NCBI GenBank assembly: GCA_964434285.1
Contig: CAYSUJ010000001.1
Location: forward strand, 304,564 to 368,563
Source of the DNA: an uncultured Candidatus Saccharibacteria bacterium
GTDB lineage: Bacteria; Patescibacteriota; Minisyncoccia; Phycocordibacterales; UBA2100
Length of the DNA stretch: 64,000 bases
Direction: 5' to 3'
Below the pieces are notes generated by a model, which ran no database searches, was not told where the DNA came from, and worked only from the letters and a program-made list of their open reading frames with translations. Shown here piece after piece: positions 15,187 through 56,074 of the stretch. Every line of letters starts with the position of its first letter. Within the stretch, counting starts at the first letter, position 1. The position numbers and the translations under genes are program-made.

Positions 15187-17394
15187 CTATTTCGCTACCC
15201 GTTCGGCCTCCTCAAGCTTCACGGAAAGTATCTTCGACACCCCGTCCTGGCTCATGGTGATCCCGTAAAGCTCTCCTGCCGCGCCCATCGTCGCGCGGTT
15301 GTGGGTGATAACGATGAGCTGGCTCTTTTTTCCCAACTCAATAATCATGTCGGCGTAGCGTCGAGAGTTCGCCTCATCAAGCGCTGCGTCCGTCTCGTCA
15401 AGAATAAGAAACGGCGGCGGATTCACCTGTGACATCGAAAAAATGAGTGCGATTGAAGTGAGCGCACGCTCGCCGCCCGAGAGCACCTCCAGCCCGCGGA
15501 TCTTCTTGCGCGGGAGAGCAACATCAATGGAAAGCCCCGAGTATGTCTCCTCTCCATCATCAGTGTTACCCCCATCATTATCTCCATATTCTGAGCCATC
15601 CTGTGGAACAAGGCGACGCCTTGCGTCTTTTTCATCCACAAAAAGCTTCGCGTGTCCCCCGCCAAACAGTTTTACAAAGAATCCCCCAAGGGCTTCATTA
15701 ATGAGTTTGAGGCCGTCTTTAAAACGAGCGTCGATGGTTTCCTCAAGTTCGCCAATCAGATTCTTCAGCGCTGCTGCCGAATGCTCGAGATCCTGCAACT
15801 CCTTAGCGAGAAACGCATCGCGCTCGGTCGTCTGCTGATATTCTTTTTCAATTGCTTCCCCACCACCAACACCAGCTTCTTCAATCTTGATCTTAAAACG
15901 CTCGATCTCACGACGTCGCTTCTCTTGCTCGCGCCGCTCTTCAAGTAGAGCGCCTTCTGGCACCTCGTGCGTATTCCACCCTTCAAACGACGAACCGAGA
16001 AGCGCTATACCCTCGCGCACCTCCTCTTCAAATCGCCGCTTCTGCTCTGCCACATGTTCGTGCTCACTCTTGAGCGCAAACATCTTTGACTGCACTTCAC
16101 GAAGCTGCGCCTCAAACTGCACCTCCTCTCGCTCGGCATGGAATGCGGCCTCGCGCTCCTTCGAAATATGGACACGTACTTCTTCCAAAGCCTTTGCAAT
16201 GCGAGATTCCTCCGCTTCTGCTTTCTCAAGCGCCGCTGTAAGGCGGATCACCTCTTTGCGCGCCTCTTCGTTCGTGATTGGCGCTGCTCCGGAGAGTCCT
16301 TCGATAAATGCACGAATGCGCTCGCGAAGCTGGGATAACAGTGTCTTTACTCTTGCAATATCTGCAATGCCCTCCGCCTCTTCGATCGCCCCGGTAATCT
16401 CACGCACGAAATCACGCACGTGCGGAACCGGCACTACGTGCTCAACGGTTATCGCCGCCGCCTCCACGGCACCTTCCGCTCGCCCGAGATCACGCACTAA
16501 CAGTTCGCGCTTTCTACGCGCCTCGCTGAGTTCTCCCTGCAGCGTTTGTACCTGAGTGAGCAGTGGCGATTCTTTCTGATTCACATGTTTGACCGATCGT
16601 GCCCCCTGTAATTTGCTCTGGAGCTCGCGAATCTCTTTTTCGCGCTCATGCACGTCGTCATTTACACGCGTTGCTTCCGCAGTAAGCCACGCATTCTCAC
16701 GAGCCAGGTAATCAGCGAGCTTATGCGCCAGTTCAGCTTTCATTTCTCGCGCCTTCTCGATTTTTTCGACCTGCGCCTCAAGAAACTTCAGGTGTGGCGC
16801 AAGCTCCCGGCGGAGCGACTTCGTCTTATCAATATTCACCGCCGTTTCCTCAAGTTTGCGCTCGCTTTCGGCTTTTTTGTGCTGGTAGAGCTTCAGCCCA
16901 AGCGCATCTTCCACCATCTCACGCCGCTCACGGGGCGATGCATTCAAAATACGATCAGCCTCACCTTGCGAAATGATTTGATAGCCCGAGCCGCCGATGT
17001 TCGCGCCCGCAAGCAGGCGAATCACGTCTTTCAATCGCACCTGCGAGCCATTTAAAAGATACTCATTTGCTCCATCGCGATGCACGATGCGCTCCACGAC
17101 AACCTCTGAAAAATCGATGTCTAGAAGTCGTTTCGAGTTATCAAAGACGACACGCACCGCCGCACGATTCATGCGTGGAAGCGCGGGTGAACCGCCCCAA
17201 ATCAGGTCCTCGCCGCGCTTGGAACGCATGCTTTTCATCGACTGCTCGCCCAAAACAAACCGGAACCCTTCGGCTACATTCGACTTCCCCGACCCATTCG
17301 GACCCACAATTCCCGCAATACGCGAACCAAAAACAAGCTCGGTCTTCTTCCCGAACGATTTGAACCCCGTGAGCTCGATAGACTTGAGGTACAC
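15187..17394 (-). CDS. smc: SMC-like chromosome-partition ATPase, hinge-less and only about 736 aa. The ORF track extends to 17823; the likely GTG start at 17394 gives (M)YLKSIELTGFKSF
   Basis: N-terminal Walker A FKSF...GPNGSGKSN...LGEQS, long coiled-coil middle, C-terminal LSGGERALTSIALIFS signature, Walker B ILDETDAALD and D-loop. It sits in the conserved rnc...smc...rpsP neighbourhood. No hinge (GxxG/dimerisation) domain was found. Confidence 0.75.
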   Translation of the reverse strand: MYLKSIELTGFKSFGKKTELVFGSRIAGIVGPNGSGKSNVAEGFRFVLGEQSMKSMRSKRGEDLIWGGSPALPRMNRAAVRVVFDNSKRLLDIDFSEVVVERIVHRDGANEYLLNGSQVRLKDVIRLLAGANIGGSGYQIISQGEADRILNASPRERREMVEDALGLKLYQHKKAESERKLEETAVNIDKTKSLRRELAPHLKFLEAQVEKIEKAREMKAELAHKLADYLARENAWLTAEATRVNDDVHEREKEIRELQSKLQGARSVKHVNQKESPLLTQVQTLQGELSEARRKRELLVRDLGRAEGAVEAAAITVEHVVPVPHVRDFVREITGAIEEAEGIADIARVKTLLSQLRERIRAFIEGLSGAAPITNEEARKEVIRLTAALEKAEAEESRIAKALEEVRVHISKEREAAFHAEREEVQFEAQLREVQSKMFALKSEHEHVAEQKRRFEEEVREGIALLGSSFEGWNTHEVPEGALLEERREQEKRRREIERFKIKIEEAGVGGGEAIEKEYQQTTERDAFLAKELQDLEHSAAALKNLIGELEETIDARFKDGLKLINEALGGFFVKLFGGGHAKLFVDEKDARRRLVPQDGSEYGDNDGGNTDDGEETYSGLSIDVALPRKKIRGLEVLSGGERALTSIALIFSMSQVNPPPFLILDETDAALDEANSRRYADMIIELGKKSQLIVITHNRATMGAAGELYGITMSQDGVSKILSVKLEEAERVAK

Positions 17395-17401
17395 GTAGGT
17401 A

Positions 17402-19402
17402 TTGTATCGCACTAATACACACAACGACCCAGCAGCCGCCCGTCCACATTCGACCATCATGTACAATTCCCGCATGTCCATGGAAGGTGGCAAAAACGGG
17501 CCCAAGTCACCGCGCCCTACAATTCTCAAAAGCTTCGGAGAATTACCGACTGCTGAAAGGCCGCATAGAGGTCGCGCACACAAAAAAGAGCGACAGGCTG
17601 TAAGAAACGAAAAAGCATTTTCCCTCAAACGACTGACACAAGAAGCATCTGTGTTTAAGAATGAAATAGACAAGGAACTCAAGTCTATTTTGAGACGAGC
17701 AGGTATCGAGAACGGAGAAGTTGCTATTGAACTCCGTCGAGAAGAGATGCAATTTGAGATAGAAATCGATGTCGCAGATGTTTCTGTACCTGATGCATTC
17801 GACCTCGAGTACGCCGCCGACAAGATAAGGAATCATATTGAAAGCGACCCGCGAAATCCGCATAACATGACTGTCCTAGTGCGTATTTCGCGTGCAAGAG
17901 ACAAGAATCGAGAAGCTCTGGAACGGGGTCGCCCGGCTCCGCACCAGAATGTCGAAGCGCGCCGTGAGATGCTTCGGAAAGAGCTGGAGAGAATGCACGA
18001 TCTACTCGATAAACTCGCTGAACAGCTGGAACGCGACGGGTTTATGCCAAAAAAGGAAAAGCGAGAAATCTATTTCAGGACGTCTCGAACAAAAGAGGGA
18101 CAAGAAATCTACGAGGTCGCAATCGATAATGAGGACGCTCCGCAGTCCATCCAGAACACTGTGCAACGCCTCGCACTGATCGAAACACGTCTCCTCACGA
18201 GTACGCGTGTGCTCGTACAAACTGCCGACGGCAAAGTCGTTATTGAAAGTCGAGAGCTAGGTTCTCGAGTAGAAGGCACACCAGAAAAAGCAGGCGTTGC
18301 GAAAGAAAGTCTCGACAATTTGAAGGCGGAGATGTTCCCTAAGCTCCGATCTCGCTTAAAGGAGTTCGCACTCGCGGTCGGCACTTCCCCACTCAGTACT
18401 GTGGAGGAAAAAATGCTCGCCCGCATCGTATCCGTTCAGGTGATTGAAGCACTCGACGATATTCTTCGTCTCGAGAAAAGCTCTGGAAAAAAGGGAAAGG
18501 AACAGGCGCGCACTAACATGATCGGAGGAACAAACCTCTTCAATCGTCTTCAAAAACTCGCCCTCATCGATGAAACAGGATGCCAGGTCAACCCGGAAAA
18601 TATCGCGAAACATATCGCACACTATTTAGAATCCGGATCTGATGCGAAAGACAATTTCGTCATCGCCCTCCACAACATCTCCGCTCGTTTCCAAAAAGTG
18701 AACCGCGAACGCGCTTTTCCCCGCATCCGAGAGGAATTAGAGAAGAAAATGACTGAGCTCGGTCTCCGATTGGAGAATGCCGATATCCTAGAGGAAGAGC
18801 CGACGCCCGAAACCCCGTGGCGTCTCGCTCTGGGTATTCACCCCGACGCAGACGGCGAGGGTGTACCCACAATTCTCCGCCGACCACTGGGACCAAACCC
18901 CAACCCGGTTGTCACGGCAGAGTTCGCAGCGCTGCTGCGTGATATGGATAGCATAAAACAAATAGAAGCAACTGGTGGCGAAGCACCATCCCCTGCCTCA
19001 GAAACGATTGTTCCCACCCTAGAGGAGTTTGCATCTGATATCGAATCATTAAGTGCATCTGCGGAAACTTCTCGCGCAACAGAGAGTGAAGACGAGCGCA
19101 CCGGGGAATTAGAAAACTTGGTTGCGGCGTTACAAACGCAATTAACAAAGGCGAACGAATCATTCGCTGCGGCGCAAAGTGAGATTGAGACTTTGCGCAC
19201 GTTGTCAGAACAATCAGGCGATGCCCTTATCGATGCTCATGAAAAAATCACGTCGCTAACTGAAGATCTACAGCGCACGGAAGCTCAAAGAGTGCTTCTT
19301 GACGCGTTCGCGAATGAAATAAAAAGAATATCGGAAGACCCAAGGGCAATTCTTGAGATGACAAAAATTGTTGTTGAAGCTTTACGAGAAATTGAAAAAT
19401 GA
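17402..19402 (+). CDS. large hypothetical protein, highly charged and coiled-coil-rich (up to 666 aa; start uncertain)
   Basis: Long ORF in a visibly AT-richer stretch, with no recognisable catalytic motif. Its TGA stop overlaps the ATG of the next gene (ATGA at 19399-19402). Confidence 0.55.
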   Translation: MYRTNTHNDPAAARPHSTIMYNSRMSMEGGKNGPKSPRPTILKSFGELPTAERPHRGRAHKKERQAVRNEKAFSLKRLTQEASVFKNEIDKELKSILRRAGIENGEVAIELRREEMQFEIEIDVADVSVPDAFDLEYAADKIRNHIESDPRNPHNMTVLVRISRARDKNREALERGRPAPHQNVEARREMLRKELERMHDLLDKLAEQLERDGFMPKKEKREIYFRTSRTKEGQEIYEVAIDNEDAPQSIQNTVQRLALIETRLLTSTRVLVQTADGKVVIESRELGSRVEGTPEKAGVAKESLDNLKAEMFPKLRSRLKEFALAVGTSPLSTVEEKMLARIVSVQVIEALDDILRLEKSSGKKGKEQARTNMIGGTNLFNRLQKLALIDETGCQVNPENIAKHIAHYLESGSDAKDNFVIALHNISARFQKVNRERAFPRIREELEKKMTELGLRLENADILEEEPTPETPWRLALGIHPDADGEGVPTILRRPLGPNPNPVVTAEFAALLRDMDSIKQIEATGGEAPSPASETIVPTLEEFASDIESLSASAETSRATESEDERTGELENLVAALQTQLTKANESFAAAQSEIETLRTLSEQSGDALIDAHEKITSLTEDLQRTEAQRVLLDAFANEIKRISEDPRAILEMTKIVVEALREIEK

Positions 19403-22400
19403 CCATGGAAAATCCATTCCTAAAGCGCATCGAAGACCATTTGGATAGAATGCGCCAAGTCACCGCAAAAAACATGCTATCACAGGCACCAGCTGCAGAA
19501 GTGAAGCCTGTACGGCCCACGAACCCTCTTTTTGCAAATGCTCGCCCGCGCTCAATACACGAACCAACTCCTATAGAAGCGGCTGGGTTAGCTCATGCAC
19601 GAGAACAAGTCCAAAGCGCTCTCGAGAGCATTGCTCAAGATCCTCATTTTGTCGCTGAAGCTCTTGATCGTGCCCGCGCGACAATCGGTGTTCTTCCGAA
19701 GGATGATACTTTCAACGCAACCCAATTTGAGCAATATGGTAAACAACTCTCAGAGTTCCTCGCGACAAGCGATACCTCAAGTGAGGAAAAGAAAGTAATG
19801 GTTGAAGAGTGCGTTGCAGCAATCGCGACCGGGCAAGGCCTCGATTCTTTGCCCGATAACCTTGCAGCTCGATTCTTAAGCTCGCAAGGCGCGCTCACGA
19901 AGGAGGTGCTCCGGGCAGAAATGACACTTGAGGCACAGGATGAGATAACGAAACCTAATCCGCACGCGTACGCGGCGCGAGCTGCGCTAGTGTTTGGTGC
20001 CGCAGCGGGGAGTCTTCTTCTTGAGGTGGGCACGACGAAAACTGCGCTCATTCAGCTTATTGATATCTACGATCCGCCTGGAATAAAACAACTCGCATCT
20101 TTAATCGCGTCTCAGCTTGAATCATTCGGCTACGACAAACTTTCATCCGTATCCGCAGCTCGTCTCGGAGTTGCTTCGACCATCGCAGGAGGTATCGGAG
20201 GAACTCTCCTCGCAACAAAAGGTCTTAAAAAGTTAGGTCCGAAGGGGAAGGCGGCGATGTACACATCTCTTGGCGCTTCTCTCGGTCTAGGCTATCTCGC
20301 TCTTCAAAATTTCGTCGCCGATAACGCCGCTGTCGCTGAAATGGGGAAAGTGATATCAAGTGAATACAAGCCCATTGCTGAACAAGGACTCTCGGCGAAA
20401 GAAAAGCGACTTGCTGCTATCGAGAAAGCAAAACAGGCAGTGCTCGCTACCCTCGAGCAAGAGAGGAACCGCCCGGGCGCCACGGGATACGGGCACTTTG
20501 CAGCGTTTCTTGATCAGGGCCTCTCAGGAAAATACGATGCAGGCTCGTTTAAATCAGGCGCACCCCAAAAACACGCCGCACTCCAGGAATCGCTTAAGAA
20601 CTTGCGAGTAAAATATTTCCGCTCCGATGCCTTGGGCAACGGTTTGTTATCACTCCTAACTGGTGTGGATAATATTGATCTCACTACTGCCCCAGAAAGC
20701 GCCAAAGCTTTGGTAGCTATTGGTGAGGCCGCGGGGCAAACTAATTTATGGAGTGGGCTTGGGAAAGTTTTAAATCCCGTTGGAGGTGTCACGACACCAA
20801 CTGCCATGTACCAACAAGCCTCGTCTGTAACAGAAGCTTTTCGCGTAATGTTGAAGGCAGATCAAGAAAAAATGAATCGTGTTGCTAGTGGTGCCTCGGA
20901 TTGGCTTGATACCATGATTAAGGCTGCGGGAACTCAAGGAGCGGATGCAAAGCTAATTGCCTCGTTGCGCGATCTCAAGGCAACACTGGGTGCAAACCTC
21001 CGACCACTCGACGCGAGCGAAGGGACGATTACGGCGGCACTCGGAAAGTTGCCCAAACCGACGGGCAAATGGGTCGTCAGAGTTGGAGACACGGAGTTCG
21101 CGCAAATGCAAAAGACACTTGAAGGTACATTCTTCCAAACCGTTTTTGGGTTTGACCTTGTTAAGGACGATTCGTATAGAGCCTTTTACCGCGGCGGAAT
21201 CATCGGACTCCTGTTACTCTTCTTCCTGACTATTAACTACGGCTCCAAGCTCGGGACGAATGCACTATATAAACGTCGTGAGAATGAATTTGAAGGATCC
21301 TTGCAAGATGGAAGTAACGAGCTGAATGAAAAAGAAAGCACGCTTGCCTCAGGAATCGCGCGCTTTCTATTCGAAGCAAACAAGGAATTCGTTACTGCAT
21401 CACGATCACCTGAGTTGGCCGCGGTATTACCCGAGTCCGTTCTAACCATGTACGTACGTAGACGGTTGCGCGAGATGTTTTTAGAGGAACAACAAGCTGA
21501 ATCGCCTGACGACCTTGTGAGCAAGAATGATTCGTGGTCATGGCTTGTTCACGGGATCGTCTTCACTCGGACCCCTGACGATGTGCGCACATTTCTAGCA
21601 TACGCTAATTGGCTTGAAAAATTGACGAAAGACCTCGATACATCAAAAGGTGGTGAAAAACTTCAAGCGGTTGTCGGCGCCATATTCCCATCCTTTGATG
21701 CAGTCGTAAAAGCACGGCACGAATCCCAAAAACCGGGCGTAGATAAACCCGAAAAAATACGAGCGTTTAAGAACGAGCTACGAAAGTTACGCAAACAACA
21801 ACTTGAGAGCCTATATATTGCGCTCTCGGATCGCATCAAGGTGATTGAAAGCACTGAAAGCGCAACAGCTGAGAAACCACTGCGAGGAACCCCTCGACTG
21901 CGGCTCGATATCGACAACACCCGAACGATCGTGGAACCAGAACTCGTAATGCGAGCACTTTCTCACAGCCAGCACTCAAGTGAGTTAGAAGAAATTAGCG
22001 AAACATTACGCTATATCGAAAGCTTGGGCATTAAGCCTGACGCGAGCACTCGAGATGATCTCCGCATTGGACGATTCGATCTCGGACCTGTATTTGCCAT
22101 CCGCAATGAACTCCAGAGAATACGAGTGGCGAGTGCACTGGGAATTCCGGACGCAACTGGACAAAAGGAGGATTTTGAGCGATTTGATGCATATATGGCA
22201 GAAATCGCTGTATCTCTCAGAGAAGCGCGCGATGCGTCGCTTAAACAAGAAGCACTCCTCAGCCCGTATACGCCTGTTTTTGATTGGGAAGAGGGCGCAA
22301 AAGGCAAATTTACCGTACGAATCAGTCTGCACCCCGATACTGAGAGAATTGAAGATCCCGTGGCATCAATCACCTTCCCGGGCACAATACCCGATTTCGC

Positions 22401-22989
22401 AAAACCCGACCCTGCAGTTGCATCAGAGACATTAAGGGAGTGGCTCAAGCCGGGTAGCGATGCGGTACGCGGGCTGGTAGCACAAGAACGAAATACCCAT
22501 ATTAAAAAAGAAATTTCGTCACGACTCGCGACGTTGCGAAAGAAGAATAATGGCTCTCCTTCCATGCGAATCGTCGAATCATCAAGACCCATAGTTCTCG
22601 AAGCCGAAGCTATCTCAATTCAACAAGAGCTCGTTGTACTTCAAGAAATCGCCCGCGAACAGGAGTCTTCGATTCCTCTGGCAAAGCGAGGACTCCCCAT
22701 CCCAGAAGATAAGTATCGCGCGTTTATCGATCCAAACGAGTACACCAGCAACGCTCGAACGCTGGCACAGCTACCGGAACGATTCGGGGATCTACAGTCG
22801 CGTGAATGGCCTGATCGCACGTCCATCACATATAACCCAAATCTACGATCATTTGAAGTGCATATTCAAAAACAAAGGCAATTTACACCAGCAACTTCGG
22901 ACGGCATGAAAAGTACATTACCCCTTACATACACCACAAGAGATGTTGAAGACCTTCTCGGTAAGTATGGTTCACTACAGGAGAAATAG
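19399..22989 (+). CDS. giant hypothetical protein (1196 aa) with about four hydrophobic segments
   Basis: Translationally coupled to the upstream ORF. Hydrophobic stretches include AALVFGAAAGSLLL, GVASTIAGGIGGTLLA, LGASLGLGYLALQNFVA and GGIIGLLLLFFLTINYG. No known domain recognised. Confidence 0.6.
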   Translation: MTMENPFLKRIEDHLDRMRQVTAKNMLSQAPAAEVKPVRPTNPLFANARPRSIHEPTPIEAAGLAHAREQVQSALESIAQDPHFVAEALDRARATIGVLPKDDTFNATQFEQYGKQLSEFLATSDTSSEEKKVMVEECVAAIATGQGLDSLPDNLAARFLSSQGALTKEVLRAEMTLEAQDEITKPNPHAYAARAALVFGAAAGSLLLEVGTTKTALIQLIDIYDPPGIKQLASLIASQLESFGYDKLSSVSAARLGVASTIAGGIGGTLLATKGLKKLGPKGKAAMYTSLGASLGLGYLALQNFVADNAAVAEMGKVISSEYKPIAEQGLSAKEKRLAAIEKAKQAVLATLEQERNRPGATGYGHFAAFLDQGLSGKYDAGSFKSGAPQKHAALQESLKNLRVKYFRSDALGNGLLSLLTGVDNIDLTTAPESAKALVAIGEAAGQTNLWSGLGKVLNPVGGVTTPTAMYQQASSVTEAFRVMLKADQEKMNRVASGASDWLDTMIKAAGTQGADAKLIASLRDLKATLGANLRPLDASEGTITAALGKLPKPTGKWVVRVGDTEFAQMQKTLEGTFFQTVFGFDLVKDDSYRAFYRGGIIGLLLLFFLTINYGSKLGTNALYKRRENEFEGSLQDGSNELNEKESTLASGIARFLFEANKEFVTASRSPELAAVLPESVLTMYVRRRLREMFLEEQQAESPDDLVSKNDSWSWLVHGIVFTRTPDDVRTFLAYANWLEKLTKDLDTSKGGEKLQAVVGAIFPSFDAVVKARHESQKPGVDKPEKIRAFKNELRKLRKQQLESLYIALSDRIKVIESTESATAEKPLRGTPRLRLDIDNTRTIVEPELVMRALSHSQHSSELEEISETLRYIESLGIKPDASTRDDLRIGRFDLGPVFAIRNELQRIRVASALGIPDATGQKEDFERFDAYMAEIAVSLREARDASLKQEALLSPYTPVFDWEEGAKGKFTVRISLHPDTERIEDPVASITFPGTIPDFAKPDPAVASETLREWLKPGSDAVRGLVAQERNTHIKKEISSRLATLRKKNNGSPSMRIVESSRPIVLEAEAISIQQELVVLQEIAREQESSIPLAKRGLPIPEDKYRAFIDPNEYTSNARTLAQLPERFGDLQSREWPDRTSITYNPNLRSFEVHIQKQRQFTPATSDGMKSTLPLTYTTRDVEDLLGKYGSLQEK

Positions 22990-23000
22990 CCTCACAAACA

Positions 23001-23033
23001 AACAACGGCATCGTGCCGTTGTTGTTGATTATT
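23001..23033 (+). terminator. intrinsic terminator after the 1196-aa gene
   Basis: aacaacggca-tcg-tgccgttgtt followed by gttgattatt. Confidence 0.55.
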
Positions 23034-23234
23034 CTACCCGCTCCCAAAGAGTGCAAACAAAATAACACCGAAGACTACGGCAATCCAAGCAAAAGTGATG
23101 ACCCTACCTATGACACCTACTAAGTGCCGTGCTTTTTGCACGTCGCGCTGCTGTACCATTTGATGACTCCGTTTCTCCGGGGCGGGAACTTCTTTGTACA
23201 TCCTAGTTGCTACAACCCCACTGTCAACTACCAT
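23034..23234 (-). CDS. possible small membrane protein (66 aa)
   Basis: C-terminal hydrophobic helix IAVVFGVILFALF; overlaps the rnc stop by 7 nt; weak support. Confidence 0.2.
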   Translation of the reverse strand: MVVDSGVVATRMYKEVPAPEKRSHQMVQQRDVQKARHLVGVIGRVITFAWIAVVFGVILFALFGSG

Positions 23235-23914
23235 CCCCGTGTCGCAAGTGCCTTACCCGCCGCATCCTGTTCTGCCTCTTGTTTGGACTTTCCTTCGCCT
23301 AATGCTTGCTTCTCTTTGCCGAGAAAGACTGCAACCACAAATCGCTTGTCGTGATCGGGACCGCTTTGGTCACTCAACTCGTACGTAGGAGTGACTCCGA
23401 TTTTGTCTTGCGCCACTTCCTGCAACCGACTCTTCGCATCTTGCCAGAGACGCTTCTCGACAACCTCATCGGTTTTATGGAAGAGCTGAGCCTCAATAAA
23501 TGCGTATGATGCCTCATAGCCCTGATCGAGATAGATGGCACCAATCACCGCCTCAAAAGCGTTTGCAAGAATAATCTGGCGGGCGCGCCCAGTATCTTTT
23601 GCCTCACCACGCGAGAGAAGGAGAAAATCGTTCATGCCGAGCTTTGTCGCAGCATCAGAAATTGATTGCGTATTCACAAGAGCGGCGCGAAGTGAGGTGA
23701 GCTCACCCTCTGGTTTCTGCGGATATTTCTTATACAGAAACTCCGTCACAACGAGCTCCAACACCGCATCGCCCAAAAATTCCAAGCGCTCATTATGCTC
23801 GCGCCCCGGGGCACGATTTTCATTGAGGTAGGATCTATGGGTAAACGCTGTCTCTAACAATCGCTTATCCTTAAATCCAACACTGATTTTTTGTTCAAAT
23901 GGACCAAAGTCCAT
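23228..23914 (-). CDS. rnc: ribonuclease III
   Basis: ERLEFLGDAVLELVVTEFLY catalytic signature plus a C-terminal dsRBD. Confidence 0.9.
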   Translation of the reverse strand: MDFGPFEQKISVGFKDKRLLETAFTHRSYLNENRAPGREHNERLEFLGDAVLELVVTEFLYKKYPQKPEGELTSLRAALVNTQSISDAATKLGMNDFLLLSRGEAKDTGRARQIILANAFEAVIGAIYLDQGYEASYAFIEAQLFHKTDEVVEKRLWQDAKSRLQEVAQDKIGVTPTYELSDQSGPDHDKRFVVAVFLGKEKQALGEGKSKQEAEQDAAGKALATRGW

Positions 23915-23929
23915 GGCGGTACCTTACTA

Positions 23930-24847
23930 TTATTTTGCTTTCTGCGCCAGCACATTAATGGCAGGAATAATGATTTTCAGCGTATCGTCGTAAAAATTTA
24001 AAGAACCCACCTGCGAGAGCGGGAACCATTGCGCGTCGTCGAGACCACCAGATGAGCCGAGTGTGATATCTGCAAAGGGAGACTCTGCAAGGAAGTAGGT
24101 GACGCGTTTGCGCTTTTTCCCCCCTTTGATTTCCGAGTCATTCGCCGTGTATTCATTCACACCAAGTTGTTGCTTGATTTCGATATCAAGTCCAAGCTCT
24201 TCTTTAATTGCGCGTCTCGTTCCCTCTTCAAGCGATTCGCCTTCTCGAATCTTTCCCTTCGATATCGTCCAGTGACCAAAAATGTCGTGCACAAACGCAA
24301 GGTACGTCTCCCCTTCATGCTTCGCGAAGACAACCGCACCCGCGAGATGCTCGACTGGCATCTTGCCAATGCCCTGCCCGCCAGGGCCGGACTTACGCGC
24401 ACTTCCCTCATTTTTTCCCGGTTCCCCGAGCTCAATATAAACGGCGCCGAGGACGCCGTTTATAAAGCGCCCCGAAGAGTTTGATCCGAAATTTTTTGCG
24501 AGCTCAATGGCCTCATTGATGGCGACCTTGGCCGGCACCTGCGTTCTGTCAGCAAAAAGAAGTTCGCAGAGTCCGAGGCGGAGAATGTTGCGGTCTATCG
24601 CAGCTATTTTTTCGAGCGGCCATTCGGGTGCCGCTTTTTCTATCACAGTATCGATCTCTTTCTGTTTCGCAATGACGGTCTTCAGTAATTCCGTCATGAA
24701 GGGCATGTCGTTGTCTCGAGCACCAAATTCTTTTGAGTACTCGGCGAGCCGCTGCGAACCCTCTTCGAGATTCATTGCATTTTGAGCGGAGTCTCTTTCA
24801 AAGAGAACCTGAAGAACAACCGAGCGTGCGAGGTGGCGATTGGCCAT
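23930..24847 (-). CDS. nusB: NusB antitermination factor fused to a C-terminal Nudix hydrolase domain
   Basis: N-terminal 145 aa NusB (RHLARSVVLQVLFE...VAINEAIELAKNFG...FINGVLG). A Gly-rich linker leads to a Nudix box GKIREGESLEEGTRRAIKEELGL. Confidence 0.75.
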   Translation of the reverse strand: MANRHLARSVVLQVLFERDSAQNAMNLEEGSQRLAEYSKEFGARDNDMPFMTELLKTVIAKQKEIDTVIEKAAPEWPLEKIAAIDRNILRLGLCELLFADRTQVPAKVAINEAIELAKNFGSNSSGRFINGVLGAVYIELGEPGKNEGSARKSGPGGQGIGKMPVEHLAGAVVFAKHEGETYLAFVHDIFGHWTISKGKIREGESLEEGTRRAIKEELGLDIEIKQQLGVNEYTANDSEIKGGKKRKRVTYFLAESPFADITLGSSGGLDDAQWFPLSQVGSLNFYDDTLKIIIPAINVLAQKAK

Positions 24848-26205: not shown

Positions 26206-26921
26206 ACCATGTAGGACACGCCGTGTCCTACATTTCGATCCTTATACTCTCCTCTGTAAGTGAAGGCGTATTGATCAGGGCTGCAATTTCGATGCGTTGG
26301 TTTTTTGCGCTCCCTAGGAGCGCTTTTAGAACACGATTATCGATGACTGAAGGGAAATTTCTCTCACCCATATAATCAAGATAACTACTCCATCGATACT
26401 CATGGAGGTACGCAAGAGCATCCGACACCTTTTTTACATTTCCCTGTCTCCATTCGGGCATCGAAAAATCCAGTGGGTTAAGGTGTATGTAGTATGGTAT
26501 GTAGTTGAAATGCGCATCGCGCTGAAGGTGTATTTTTTTAAAGACACCCTGCCAAAGCACGCCACTACGCGAATACTTTTCGTTGAAATATTTTGCATAT
26601 CCCATGCCTAACTTTTGAGCAAAACGAGAAACATACACCGCATCGTCATCGACCGGAGAAAGAAGGAGGTGGTAATGATTGTCCATCAGACACCATGCAT
26701 GAATGTGCACGAGGCGTTTATGATTTCTATCTCTACGCTCTCGCACATGTCTATGGGCCACTATTTTCTGATTATTAAGTTCATACAAGTCGCTTACGAA
26801 TCGAGCCCGATCCCCATCGTCGAGCACAATTTTTCTTTTTTCTACGCCCCTGTTGAGAATGTGATAAAAATCCATGATTCACTTAACTGTACCATGTAGG
26901 ACACGCCGTGTCCTACATGGT
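26206..26921. mobile_element. IS200/IS605-like (RAYT-like) unit: a Y1 HUH transposase gene bounded by identical perfect palindromes
   Basis: accatgtaggacacgccgtgtcctacat at 26206-26233 and the same sequence extended to a 31-bp palindrome at 26891-26921. The tnp stop codon lies inside the left palindrome. Confidence 0.7.
26228..26875 (-). CDS. Y1 (HUH) tyrosine transposase, IS200/RAYT family
   Basis: FYHILNRG N-terminus, HUH motif HAWCLMDNHYHLLL, and a downstream Tyr-containing YRWSSY region; 215 aa. Confidence 0.75.
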   Translation of the reverse strand: MDFYHILNRGVEKRKIVLDDGDRARFVSDLYELNNQKIVAHRHVRERRDRNHKRLVHIHAWCLMDNHYHLLLSPVDDDAVYVSRFAQKLGMGYAKYFNEKYSRSGVLWQGVFKKIHLQRDAHFNYIPYYIHLNPLDFSMPEWRQGNVKKVSDALAYLHEYRWSSYLDYMGERNFPSVIDNRVLKALLGSAKNQRIEIAALINTPSLTEESIRIEM

Positions 26922-54313: not shown

Positions 54314-56074
54314 TCACTCGATCGTATTAGTTGATTCAGACTCTTCAGAAGAACTTGACTCCTCACTTTCAACCTCCGCAGAAGGCCCCTTTTGCTCGCC
54401 CCCTTCCTCAGTTTCATCTCCGAGAAGGAGAGGGCTCAATGTGTTAACTTCCGAAAAAGGAACCCTTCCTGCGAACGCTTTGATTATAGCATCCTCGCGC
54501 ATTGTGCGCATACCCTGCTGTCGTGCAGCAGCCCACAATTTTGAATCAACAGGATTCGTGAGAATTATTTTCTCGATTTCACTTGACATTTCCAGTACCT
54601 CAAACACTGCCGCTCGGCCACGCATACCAGTAGGACATGAAGCACTCCTCTCCGGCTCGTACACGTTCTCTGGTATGGGGAATCGATAATGCGATGGCAT
54701 CGTAGCCAGATCGCGCTCAACCGCCATGCGATCTCCATTTGAAAGTGGCACTGACTTTCCTGTCCCGTCGCAGAGCGTCCGCACTAAGCGCTGTGCCATC
54801 GAAAGAATGAGCGTTGAAGGAATGAGGTATGGTTCGACGCCCATATCGATAAGACGCGGTATCGTTCCCACAGCATCATTCGTGTGAATAGTTGAGAGCA
54901 CGAGGTGACCGGTGAGTGCAGCCTGCATGGCAAGCTTCGCGGTTTCACCATCACGAATCTCGCCCACCATTATGATATCGGGATCCTGGCGGAGTGTGGT
55001 ACGCAAACCGTTTGCGAATGTGTAGCCGATTTCGGGACGCACCTGCGATTGAATAATGCCTTCGACATGGTACTCGATAGGATCTTCGAGCGAAAGTACA
55101 TTTTGATGCTCACGATCAAGCTCAGCCAGCATTGAATAGAGTGTGGTTGATTTACCGGAACCAGTAGGACCTGAAATGAGAATAAGGCCATGAGGGCGGT
55201 CAATCGCCTCTCGAATGAGACGAAGATCGCGTTCGGAAAGTCCAAGATCGCCAAGCGGAATAAATCCCTGATCGCGGTCGAGAATACGCATCACCACCTT
55301 TTCCCCCATGTAGGTTGGAAAGGTGGAAACACGAAAATCAATTTGACGGTCATTGAATGAGGCAGAAAATCGTCCATCCTGCGGCTTTCGTCTCTCATCA
55401 AGTCGAATGGATGAGAGCACTTTTACACGCGCGATGATGGCGCGGTGCGTCTCCGATGGCAAAACAACACTCGTGTGAAGTTCGCCATCAACACGATAAC
55501 GCACACGCACGCCAGCGGTCGTTGGTTCAATATGAATATCTGAGGCCTTGCCATCGATAGCATATCGCAGAATCGTCGAAACAATCTTGATTGCGGGTGC
55601 ATCTTCGCGAATGGTCGTCTCACCACTGCCACCACCTCCGCTCGCCAAGGAACCAAGTTCCAATAGATCCTCCTCATCTGAAAAAGCGCTCGAACTATCC
55701 TTTTCTTTACTCGCACGATCGTCTCCAGAGTGGAGATCGGAAAGAGCGCGATCAACATCGCCACCCAACCCTCGATACATTTGGATAATCTTATCAATAT
55801 CCGCATCGGAAACTTTAAATAACTTAAAAGGCATGCCCGTTTTCCGAGCAATGAAATTGAGTGCATCAATTGCTGCGATATTGTCGGGATCAACGACGCC
55901 CATTTCAAGCACGCCCTCATTAACCGCGAGCGGTGCAAACCGATAGTGTTGCGCCGACTCCTCAGGAATATATTTGAGGACGTCGTACGGGATTTTACTT
56001 GAACCAAGTGAACGTTCTGGTATTCCTGAAGAAGTGCCAATCGCCTGGCTGCGCTGGTCATTCGCAGTGGGCAT
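54314..56074 (-). CDS. pilB: type IV pilus assembly ATPase PilB/GspE with an acidic Ser/Glu-rich C-terminal tail
   Basis: GSPII_E N-terminal domain; Walker A LISGPTGSGKSTTL; Asp box, Walker B, His box; tetracysteine-free C-terminus ending ESEESSSSEESES. Confidence 0.85.
   Translation of the reverse strand: MPTANDQRSQAIGTSSGIPERSLGSSKIPYDVLKYIPEESAQHYRFAPLAVNEGVLEMGVVDPDNIAAIDALNFIARKTGMPFKLFKVSDADIDKIIQMYRGLGGDVDRALSDLHSGDDRASKEKDSSSAFSDEEDLLELGSLASGGGGSGETTIREDAPAIKIVSTILRYAIDGKASDIHIEPTTAGVRVRYRVDGELHTSVVLPSETHRAIIARVKVLSSIRLDERRKPQDGRFSASFNDRQIDFRVSTFPTYMGEKVVMRILDRDQGFIPLGDLGLSERDLRLIREAIDRPHGLILISGPTGSGKSTTLYSMLAELDREHQNVLSLEDPIEYHVEGIIQSQVRPEIGYTFANGLRTTLRQDPDIIMVGEIRDGETAKLAMQAALTGHLVLSTIHTNDAVGTIPRLIDMGVEPYLIPSTLILSMAQRLVRTLCDGTGKSVPLSNGDRMAVERDLATMPSHYRFPIPENVYEPERSASCPTGMRGRAAVFEVLEMSSEIEKIILTNPVDSKLWAAARQQGMRTMREDAIIKAFAGRVPFSEVNTLSPLLLGDETEEGGEQKGPSAEVESEESSSSEESESTNTIE

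Follow-up and report, generated by a model that had tools for sequence, protein, structure and literature searches.

A lineage-restricted two-gene membrane module between smc and rnc in ultra-small Paceibacteria and its possible link to SMC-ScpAB

The window analysed here, a stretch of 64,000 nucleotides, carries a pair of genes (A and B) between smc and rnc that represents an old, vertically inherited and lineage-restricted two-gene operon and not a recent island. The encoded proteins form an undescribed module outside every named family, as had been proposed from the sequence alone, and are known from one small clade of ultra-small Paceibacteria (CPR). The location next to the condensin ATPase, which was taken as incidental in that sequence-only reading, is in our view the most informative clue, and we tentatively propose that A and B act together with SMC-ScpAB as a cytoplasmic scaffold anchored in the membrane. 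CPR (Patescibacteria) cells, which rank with the smallest known, do without many canonical components of the cell cycle, and their chromosome organisation and segregation are essentially unknown. An unmatched pair restricted to one clade, whose neighbour is smc in most lineages and scpA-scpB in another, therefore offers a concrete, testable candidate for a link between condensin and envelope. If the SMC link were coincidental, the pair would represent a defined orphan membrane complex under purifying selection in a variable slot of an ancient cluster, one more entry in the long list of CPR proteins without annotation, and only moderately interesting.

Table 1. Features of the A/B locus and its immediate flanks (positions refer to the window; TM, transmembrane).
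Feature	Position	Strand	Description
smc (flank)	15187-17394	-	735 aa, short; divergent from A; Pfam SMC_N 6.4e-64, residues 2-721
Divergent intergenic region	17395-17473		smc start to A start, 79 bp
Gene A	17474-19402	+	ATG start, 642 aa; start set by homologues beginning MSxExG
ATGA stop/start overlap of A and B	19399-19402	+	Translational coupling; read in sequence
Gene B	19399-22989	+	ATG start, 1196 aa; mostly alpha-helical membrane protein, conserved family core
B residues 190-306, predicted three-TM cluster	19966-20316	+	Hydropathy, alignment, AF2 helices 188-223, 247-274, 281-356
B residues 599-619, predicted fourth TM helix	21193-21255	+	Hydropathy maximum 1.66; followed by KRRENEFEG
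Hairpin	23001-23023		10-bp stem, 12 nt 3' of B stop codon
Small ORF, 41-55 aa	23034-23201	-	One hydrophobic helix; 3' of rnc, convergent with B
rnc (flank, RNase III)	23228-23914	-	Pfam
nusB-NUDIX fusion	23930-24847		Precedes rnc; Pfam

Both genes are real, since homologues exist and dN/dS amounts to 0.13 for A and 0.076 (rounded, 0.08) for B; A and B are thus under purifying selection. With smc and rnc both encoded on the minus strand, the pair stands on the opposite strand and, as noticed earlier, interrupts a conserved adjacency (Table 1). The 1196-aa frame of B agrees with the earlier reading, while the 666-aa frame given for A is present only as the longest mechanical ORF (17402..19402, plus strand, TTG start), homologues starting at the ATG of the 642-aa protein; the NCBI call begins at 17459 (647 aa). 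Tight coupling of the two genes was confirmed by the relatives, as A and B are joined by an ATGA overlap or separated by 2-3 nt in four of the five close genomes (the window, L004, L003 and L001), the gap being 38 nt in L002. In the intergenic region between smc and A, the sequence and its alignment with L003, L004 and L001 revealed a -10-like TACAAT box at 17461-17466, 7 nt before the ATG at 17474, and a conserved ATTGTA adjoining smc, i.e., TACAAT on the minus strand; both boxes are putative promoters. The terminator hairpin ascribed to the pair is also well supported (-15.9 kcal/mol, z = -3.3; 0 of 200 shuffles fold as well) and is terminator-like in both directions, because it is set between B and a small convergent minus-strand ORF.

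Protein A was rightly described as highly charged, with 33% D/E/K/R, and features no hydrophobic segment. Besides a basic N-terminal tail (RGRAHKKERQ) and a C-terminal coiled coil, it comprises two small alpha/beta modules, a helical domain and a disordered acidic linker, the AF2 model (pLDDT 66.6) showing long helices at 487-646. The basic tail is the sole hint of possible nucleic-acid binding, and Pfam revealed no helix-turn-helix or other DNA-binding domain in A or B. SSGKKGK was considered as a P-loop and rejected, as it does not fit GxxxxGK[ST]. A is probably the cytoplasmic partner of the membrane protein.

For B, the count of about four hydrophobic helices was borne out, with two strong ones (190-213 and 594-620) and two that are Gly/Ala-rich (about 257-275 and about 284-306; AF2 pLDDT 71.3). 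The first of the strong helices and the two Gly/Ala-rich ones form a cluster carrying a KKLGPKGK loop, which the positive-inside rule would place in the cytoplasm. Residues 190-306 are the best conserved part of B within the close clade (79-93% identity), followed by the putative ectodomain (64-67%), the cytoplasmic tail (55-58%) and the N-terminus (43%). Because the ectodomain thus outscores both tail and N-terminus, a surface arms race is disfavoured. Across the whole family, conservation is centred on TM4 and the region after it, with distant matches aligning at about 550-1140 of the profile, and the invariant residues are N643, E646, R687, R691, F929, M933, P998 and W1015. The most probable topology features four TM helices, with the first ~190 and the last ~575 residues in the cytoplasm and ~290 helical residues facing outward. 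By the same positive-inside rule, A would lie wholly in the cytoplasm and B to about two thirds, which weakens a purely surface-related version of the surface-assembly role suggested earlier.

Neither protein could be assigned to a named family, in line with the earlier failure to recognise any motif. Pfam and NCBIfam gave no match for A or B, no domain from either in any of 14 members of the B family and, for Pfam, nothing on ten partner or island proteins. The best PADLOC match was DruC (E = 0.82) on the coiled coil of A, with none for B; nothing in PHROGs was better than E = 0.013, and a PDB profile search reached E = 0.017 at best, confined to coiled-coil regions. A PDB fold search with the models of A and B returned no match; Foldseek matches to MukB and Smc were dismissed as long-helix noise (TM-scores 0.05). 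When 1.84 billion representatives were scanned in full with an HMM from a trimmed four-sequence B alignment, only 12 relatives of B emerged, with 1100-1500 aa apart from one 318-aa fragment, and a repeated homologue search with a 14-member alignment recovered only five proteins, all already found. Pattern scans for B in GTDB species genomes, JGI metagenomes and IMG/VR and tblastn searches with B in INPHARED (phages) and PLSDB (plasmids) gave no match, homology to a known housekeeping complex was found for neither protein, and no description of the pair was found in the literature. The pair may accordingly be called categorically new in the sense of an absence of matches at medium-confidence models, a term that rests on missing matches and not on demonstrated function.

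That rnc and smc are normally adjacent, as stated earlier, holds within the class: the gap measures 17-330 bp in most related genomes, and in the nearest GTDB species (rpoB ~80% identical) the two genes are adjacent, with no room for the pair and with the same short smc. A/B is therefore an insertion into the ancestral nusB-rnc-smc order. In all four close relatives (L001-L004), just as in the window, the pair is bordered by smc and rnc; the flanks comprise smc, rpsP, khpA, trmD, rnc, nusB, rnhB and dnaE, and the slot holds the pair in relatives down to 36% B identity. L001-L004 come from the runs ERR9903364, SRR20217213, SRR31968551 and SRR29476933. Even distant relatives of B with 17-25% identity still adjoin rnc (L085, L087 and L092), and smc is found on the other side of the island in L087. 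L085_677 and L092_605 were rejected as smc candidates, with no blastp match to smc of the window and no Pfam match. In the P0013/14/15 subclade, B is located directly upstream of scpA-scpB-dacA-mraY-ftsW on three contigs, with 340-380 bp between B and scpA, and in the L088-L090 subclade the recovered flank contains no SMC gene. B is hence placed in the rnc-smc slot in five subclades, upstream of scpAB in one and near neither in one, counts that leave out the context of P0016 and are too small, in terms of independent events, to support a firm statistic. As a rough estimate, a chance position next to scpAB would have a probability of 1-2% in a genome with ~500 genes. Canonical scpA and scpB exist as separate genes in related genomes; no scpA, scpB, mraY or ftsW was found within the window.

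The co-occurrence of the pair, a check suggested together with the first reading, showed that B and a charged, TM-less partner recur, beside smc or scpA-scpB in most subclades. This partner lies upstream of each B with recovered context and is often unrecognisably different, without recognisable homology between subclades; neither A nor any of the partners features hydrophobic segments. Comparing A with the partners of other subclades, hmmsearch and hhalign (reported probability 0.35) detected no homology, and A and the L001 partner have only a short N-terminal motif, MSxE[NG]G...RGRxH, in common. B evolves four to six times faster than the flanks, and, measured from the window, A/B has diverged four-fold more from L003 than from L004, with the flanks equally diverged in both comparisons.

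How could such a pair contribute to the physiology of these cells? In the proposed scaffold, A would be made in step with B via the ATGA overlap and would bind the cytoplasmic domains of B, and the resulting membrane-anchored complex could cooperate with the SMC-ScpAB condensin, e.g., as a tether or positioning device for the nucleoid or condensin at the envelope or the division site, in functional analogy to membrane-chromosome tethers of other small cocci. The position of B relatives beside smc or scpA-scpB hints at a link to chromosome organisation and is no proof of it. Consistent with the scaffold are the smc-rnc slot shared by the window and L001-L004, with the starts of smc and A only 79 bp apart, the distant relatives adjoining rnc or, as in L087, also flanked by smc, and the subclade beside scpA-scpB. 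The predicted cytoplasmic bias, a conserved core of B formed by TM4 and the region after the KRRE cluster, ectodomain conservation, purifying selection and the conserved stop/start coupling also fit, as does the lack of mobile-element, phage, plasmid or defence signals. Several observations, however, argue against it. The distribution is patchy, the pair being missing in the nearest GTDB species despite the same short smc; no DNA-binding, kleisin, KITE or other condensin-accessory domain was detected in A or B; A/B and smc are divergent and not co-transcribed, and B and scpA are separated by the gap given above; and the recovered flank of L088-L090 lacks an SMC gene. Non-homologous partners and a fast evolution of B are also unusual for the partner of a slow-evolving core machine, and, as rnc-smc belongs to an ancient conserved cluster, adjacency to smc could merely mark a permissive operon boundary. 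Rather doubtful is the more far-reaching idea that A/B would be the first integral-membrane partner system of a bacterial SMC-ScpAB, coupling the nucleoid or a hinge-less 735-aa condensin (the smc product gave no Pfam match to the hinge domain) to the envelope of ultra-small CPR cells and standing in for segregation or positioning machinery that these cells lack.

In other bacteria, the chromosome is tethered to the membrane by proteins acting alongside SMC, e.g., RacA-DivIVA of Bacillus subtilis, and EzrA represents a membrane-anchored coiled-coil scaffold of the division machinery. EzrA and A/B would both be largely alpha-helical and membrane-anchored, with a large cytoplasmic helical mass and without enzymatic motifs. 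A further tether acting alongside SMC is RicO of Staphylococcus aureus, one small protein that combines a recognisable DNA-binding domain with an amphipathic helix (bioRxiv 10.64898/2026.03.06.710092). Like RicO and RacA-DivIVA, A/B could be a lineage-restricted, non-enzymatic bridge between nucleoid and membrane that works in parallel to SMC-ScpAB in small cells, and those tethers are also patchily distributed. In contrast to RicO, the pair comprises 642 + 1196 aa and gave no sign of a DNA-binding domain, and B appears to span the membrane with four helices and to carry an ectodomain; there is no sequence or fold similarity, and the likeness would be a functional conjecture only. The accessory subunits of condensins (ScpA/ScpB, MukE/MukF, MksE/F, JetA/JetB) are likewise encoded beside an SMC-family ATPase, and B relatives also adjoin scpA-scpB. 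However, A and B gave no match to Pfam SMC_ScpA, SMC_ScpB or MukE/F, and the accessory subunits described so far are, unlike the membrane protein B, soluble proteins of the kleisin or winged-helix type.

In the main rival reading, the pair would be an accessory module of the envelope or host interface without relation to SMC; we consider this a serious alternative, if somewhat unlikely in itself. Here, the ~290-residue ectodomain of B would contact the cell wall, the S-layer or a host cell, with A as cytoplasmic adaptor, and the rnc-smc gap would be a permissive slot accumulating variable envelope genes in episymbiotic bacteria. In fact, this gap holds variable small membrane ORFs in other Paceibacteria, including a type IV pilin-like ORF in L038, and the islands of L085, L087 and L092 contain further unrelated hypothetical and membrane proteins. 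The patchy distribution, the fast and non-clocklike divergence and the extreme rarity of the family also suit such a role, and CPR genomes often encode large orphan membrane proteins. With these orphan proteins, a label and not a defined family, A/B shares the host group, the absence of annotation, fast evolution, patchiness and the variable slot; it differs from them by its linkage to smc and scpAB and by keeping its position across deep divergence. Against the envelope role, the ectodomain is not the fastest-evolving part, A and about two thirds of B would reside in the cytoplasm, domains typical of adhesins, repeats, signal peptides or cell-wall binding were not found, and the move beside scpA-scpB is left unexplained.

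Improbable, in comparison, is an anti-phage defence or inter-bacterial conflict system with B as membrane effector and A as variable sensor or specificity partner, one of the roles considered from the sequence. A variable, often non-homologous upstream partner next to a conserved membrane protein, patchy presence among sister species and an evolution faster than that of the flanks would be in accordance with it. The search against PADLOC, however, gave no significant match, effector domains (nuclease, ATPase, protease, TIR, SIR2 or others) were not found, and the pair lies among housekeeping genes instead of a defence island, keeps its position over deep divergence and is under strongly purifying selection. 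Secretion, also suggested before, found no support: neither A, B nor the neighbours matched Pfam families of T2SS/T4P, T4SS or T7SS, no ATPase or known core component is located in or beside the pair, and the sole T2SSE ATPase (54314-56074) is 31 kb away. We regard as very improbable that B forms an oligomeric four-TM large-pore channel or junction, as in pannexin, connexin, LRRC8 or TTYH-like proteins, for exchange with a host and gated by A from the inside.

In terms of composition, the distinctness claimed for the pair is real but modest. The GC content is 0.495 for A and 0.497 for B, compared to 0.50-0.54 in the immediate flanks and 0.526 in the whole window, and GC3 amounts to 0.47 and 0.45, respectively, compared to 0.51-0.64 in the flanks; genes elsewhere in the window are equally low, namely the T2SSE ATPase gene (0.457) and a weak IS200-like ORF at 26228-26875 (0.44). 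Recent acquisition as a foreign island, or an origin from a degraded mobile element or a piece of prophage, for which the lowered GC3 and the IS200-like ORF 3 kb away could speak, is largely refuted and barely credible, as all relatives show the same slot and GC3 dip, an att-site check gave no flanking repeats beyond short chance-level matches, the nearest tRNA is 25 kb away, no integrase is present and the searches of IMG/VR, INPHARED, PLSDB and PHROGs described above gave no homologues.

The small minus-strand ORF downstream of B is part of the context and may lie outside the A/B module; small minus-strand ORFs of 42-55 aa, matched by position only, are called at the corresponding site in L001, L003 and L004.

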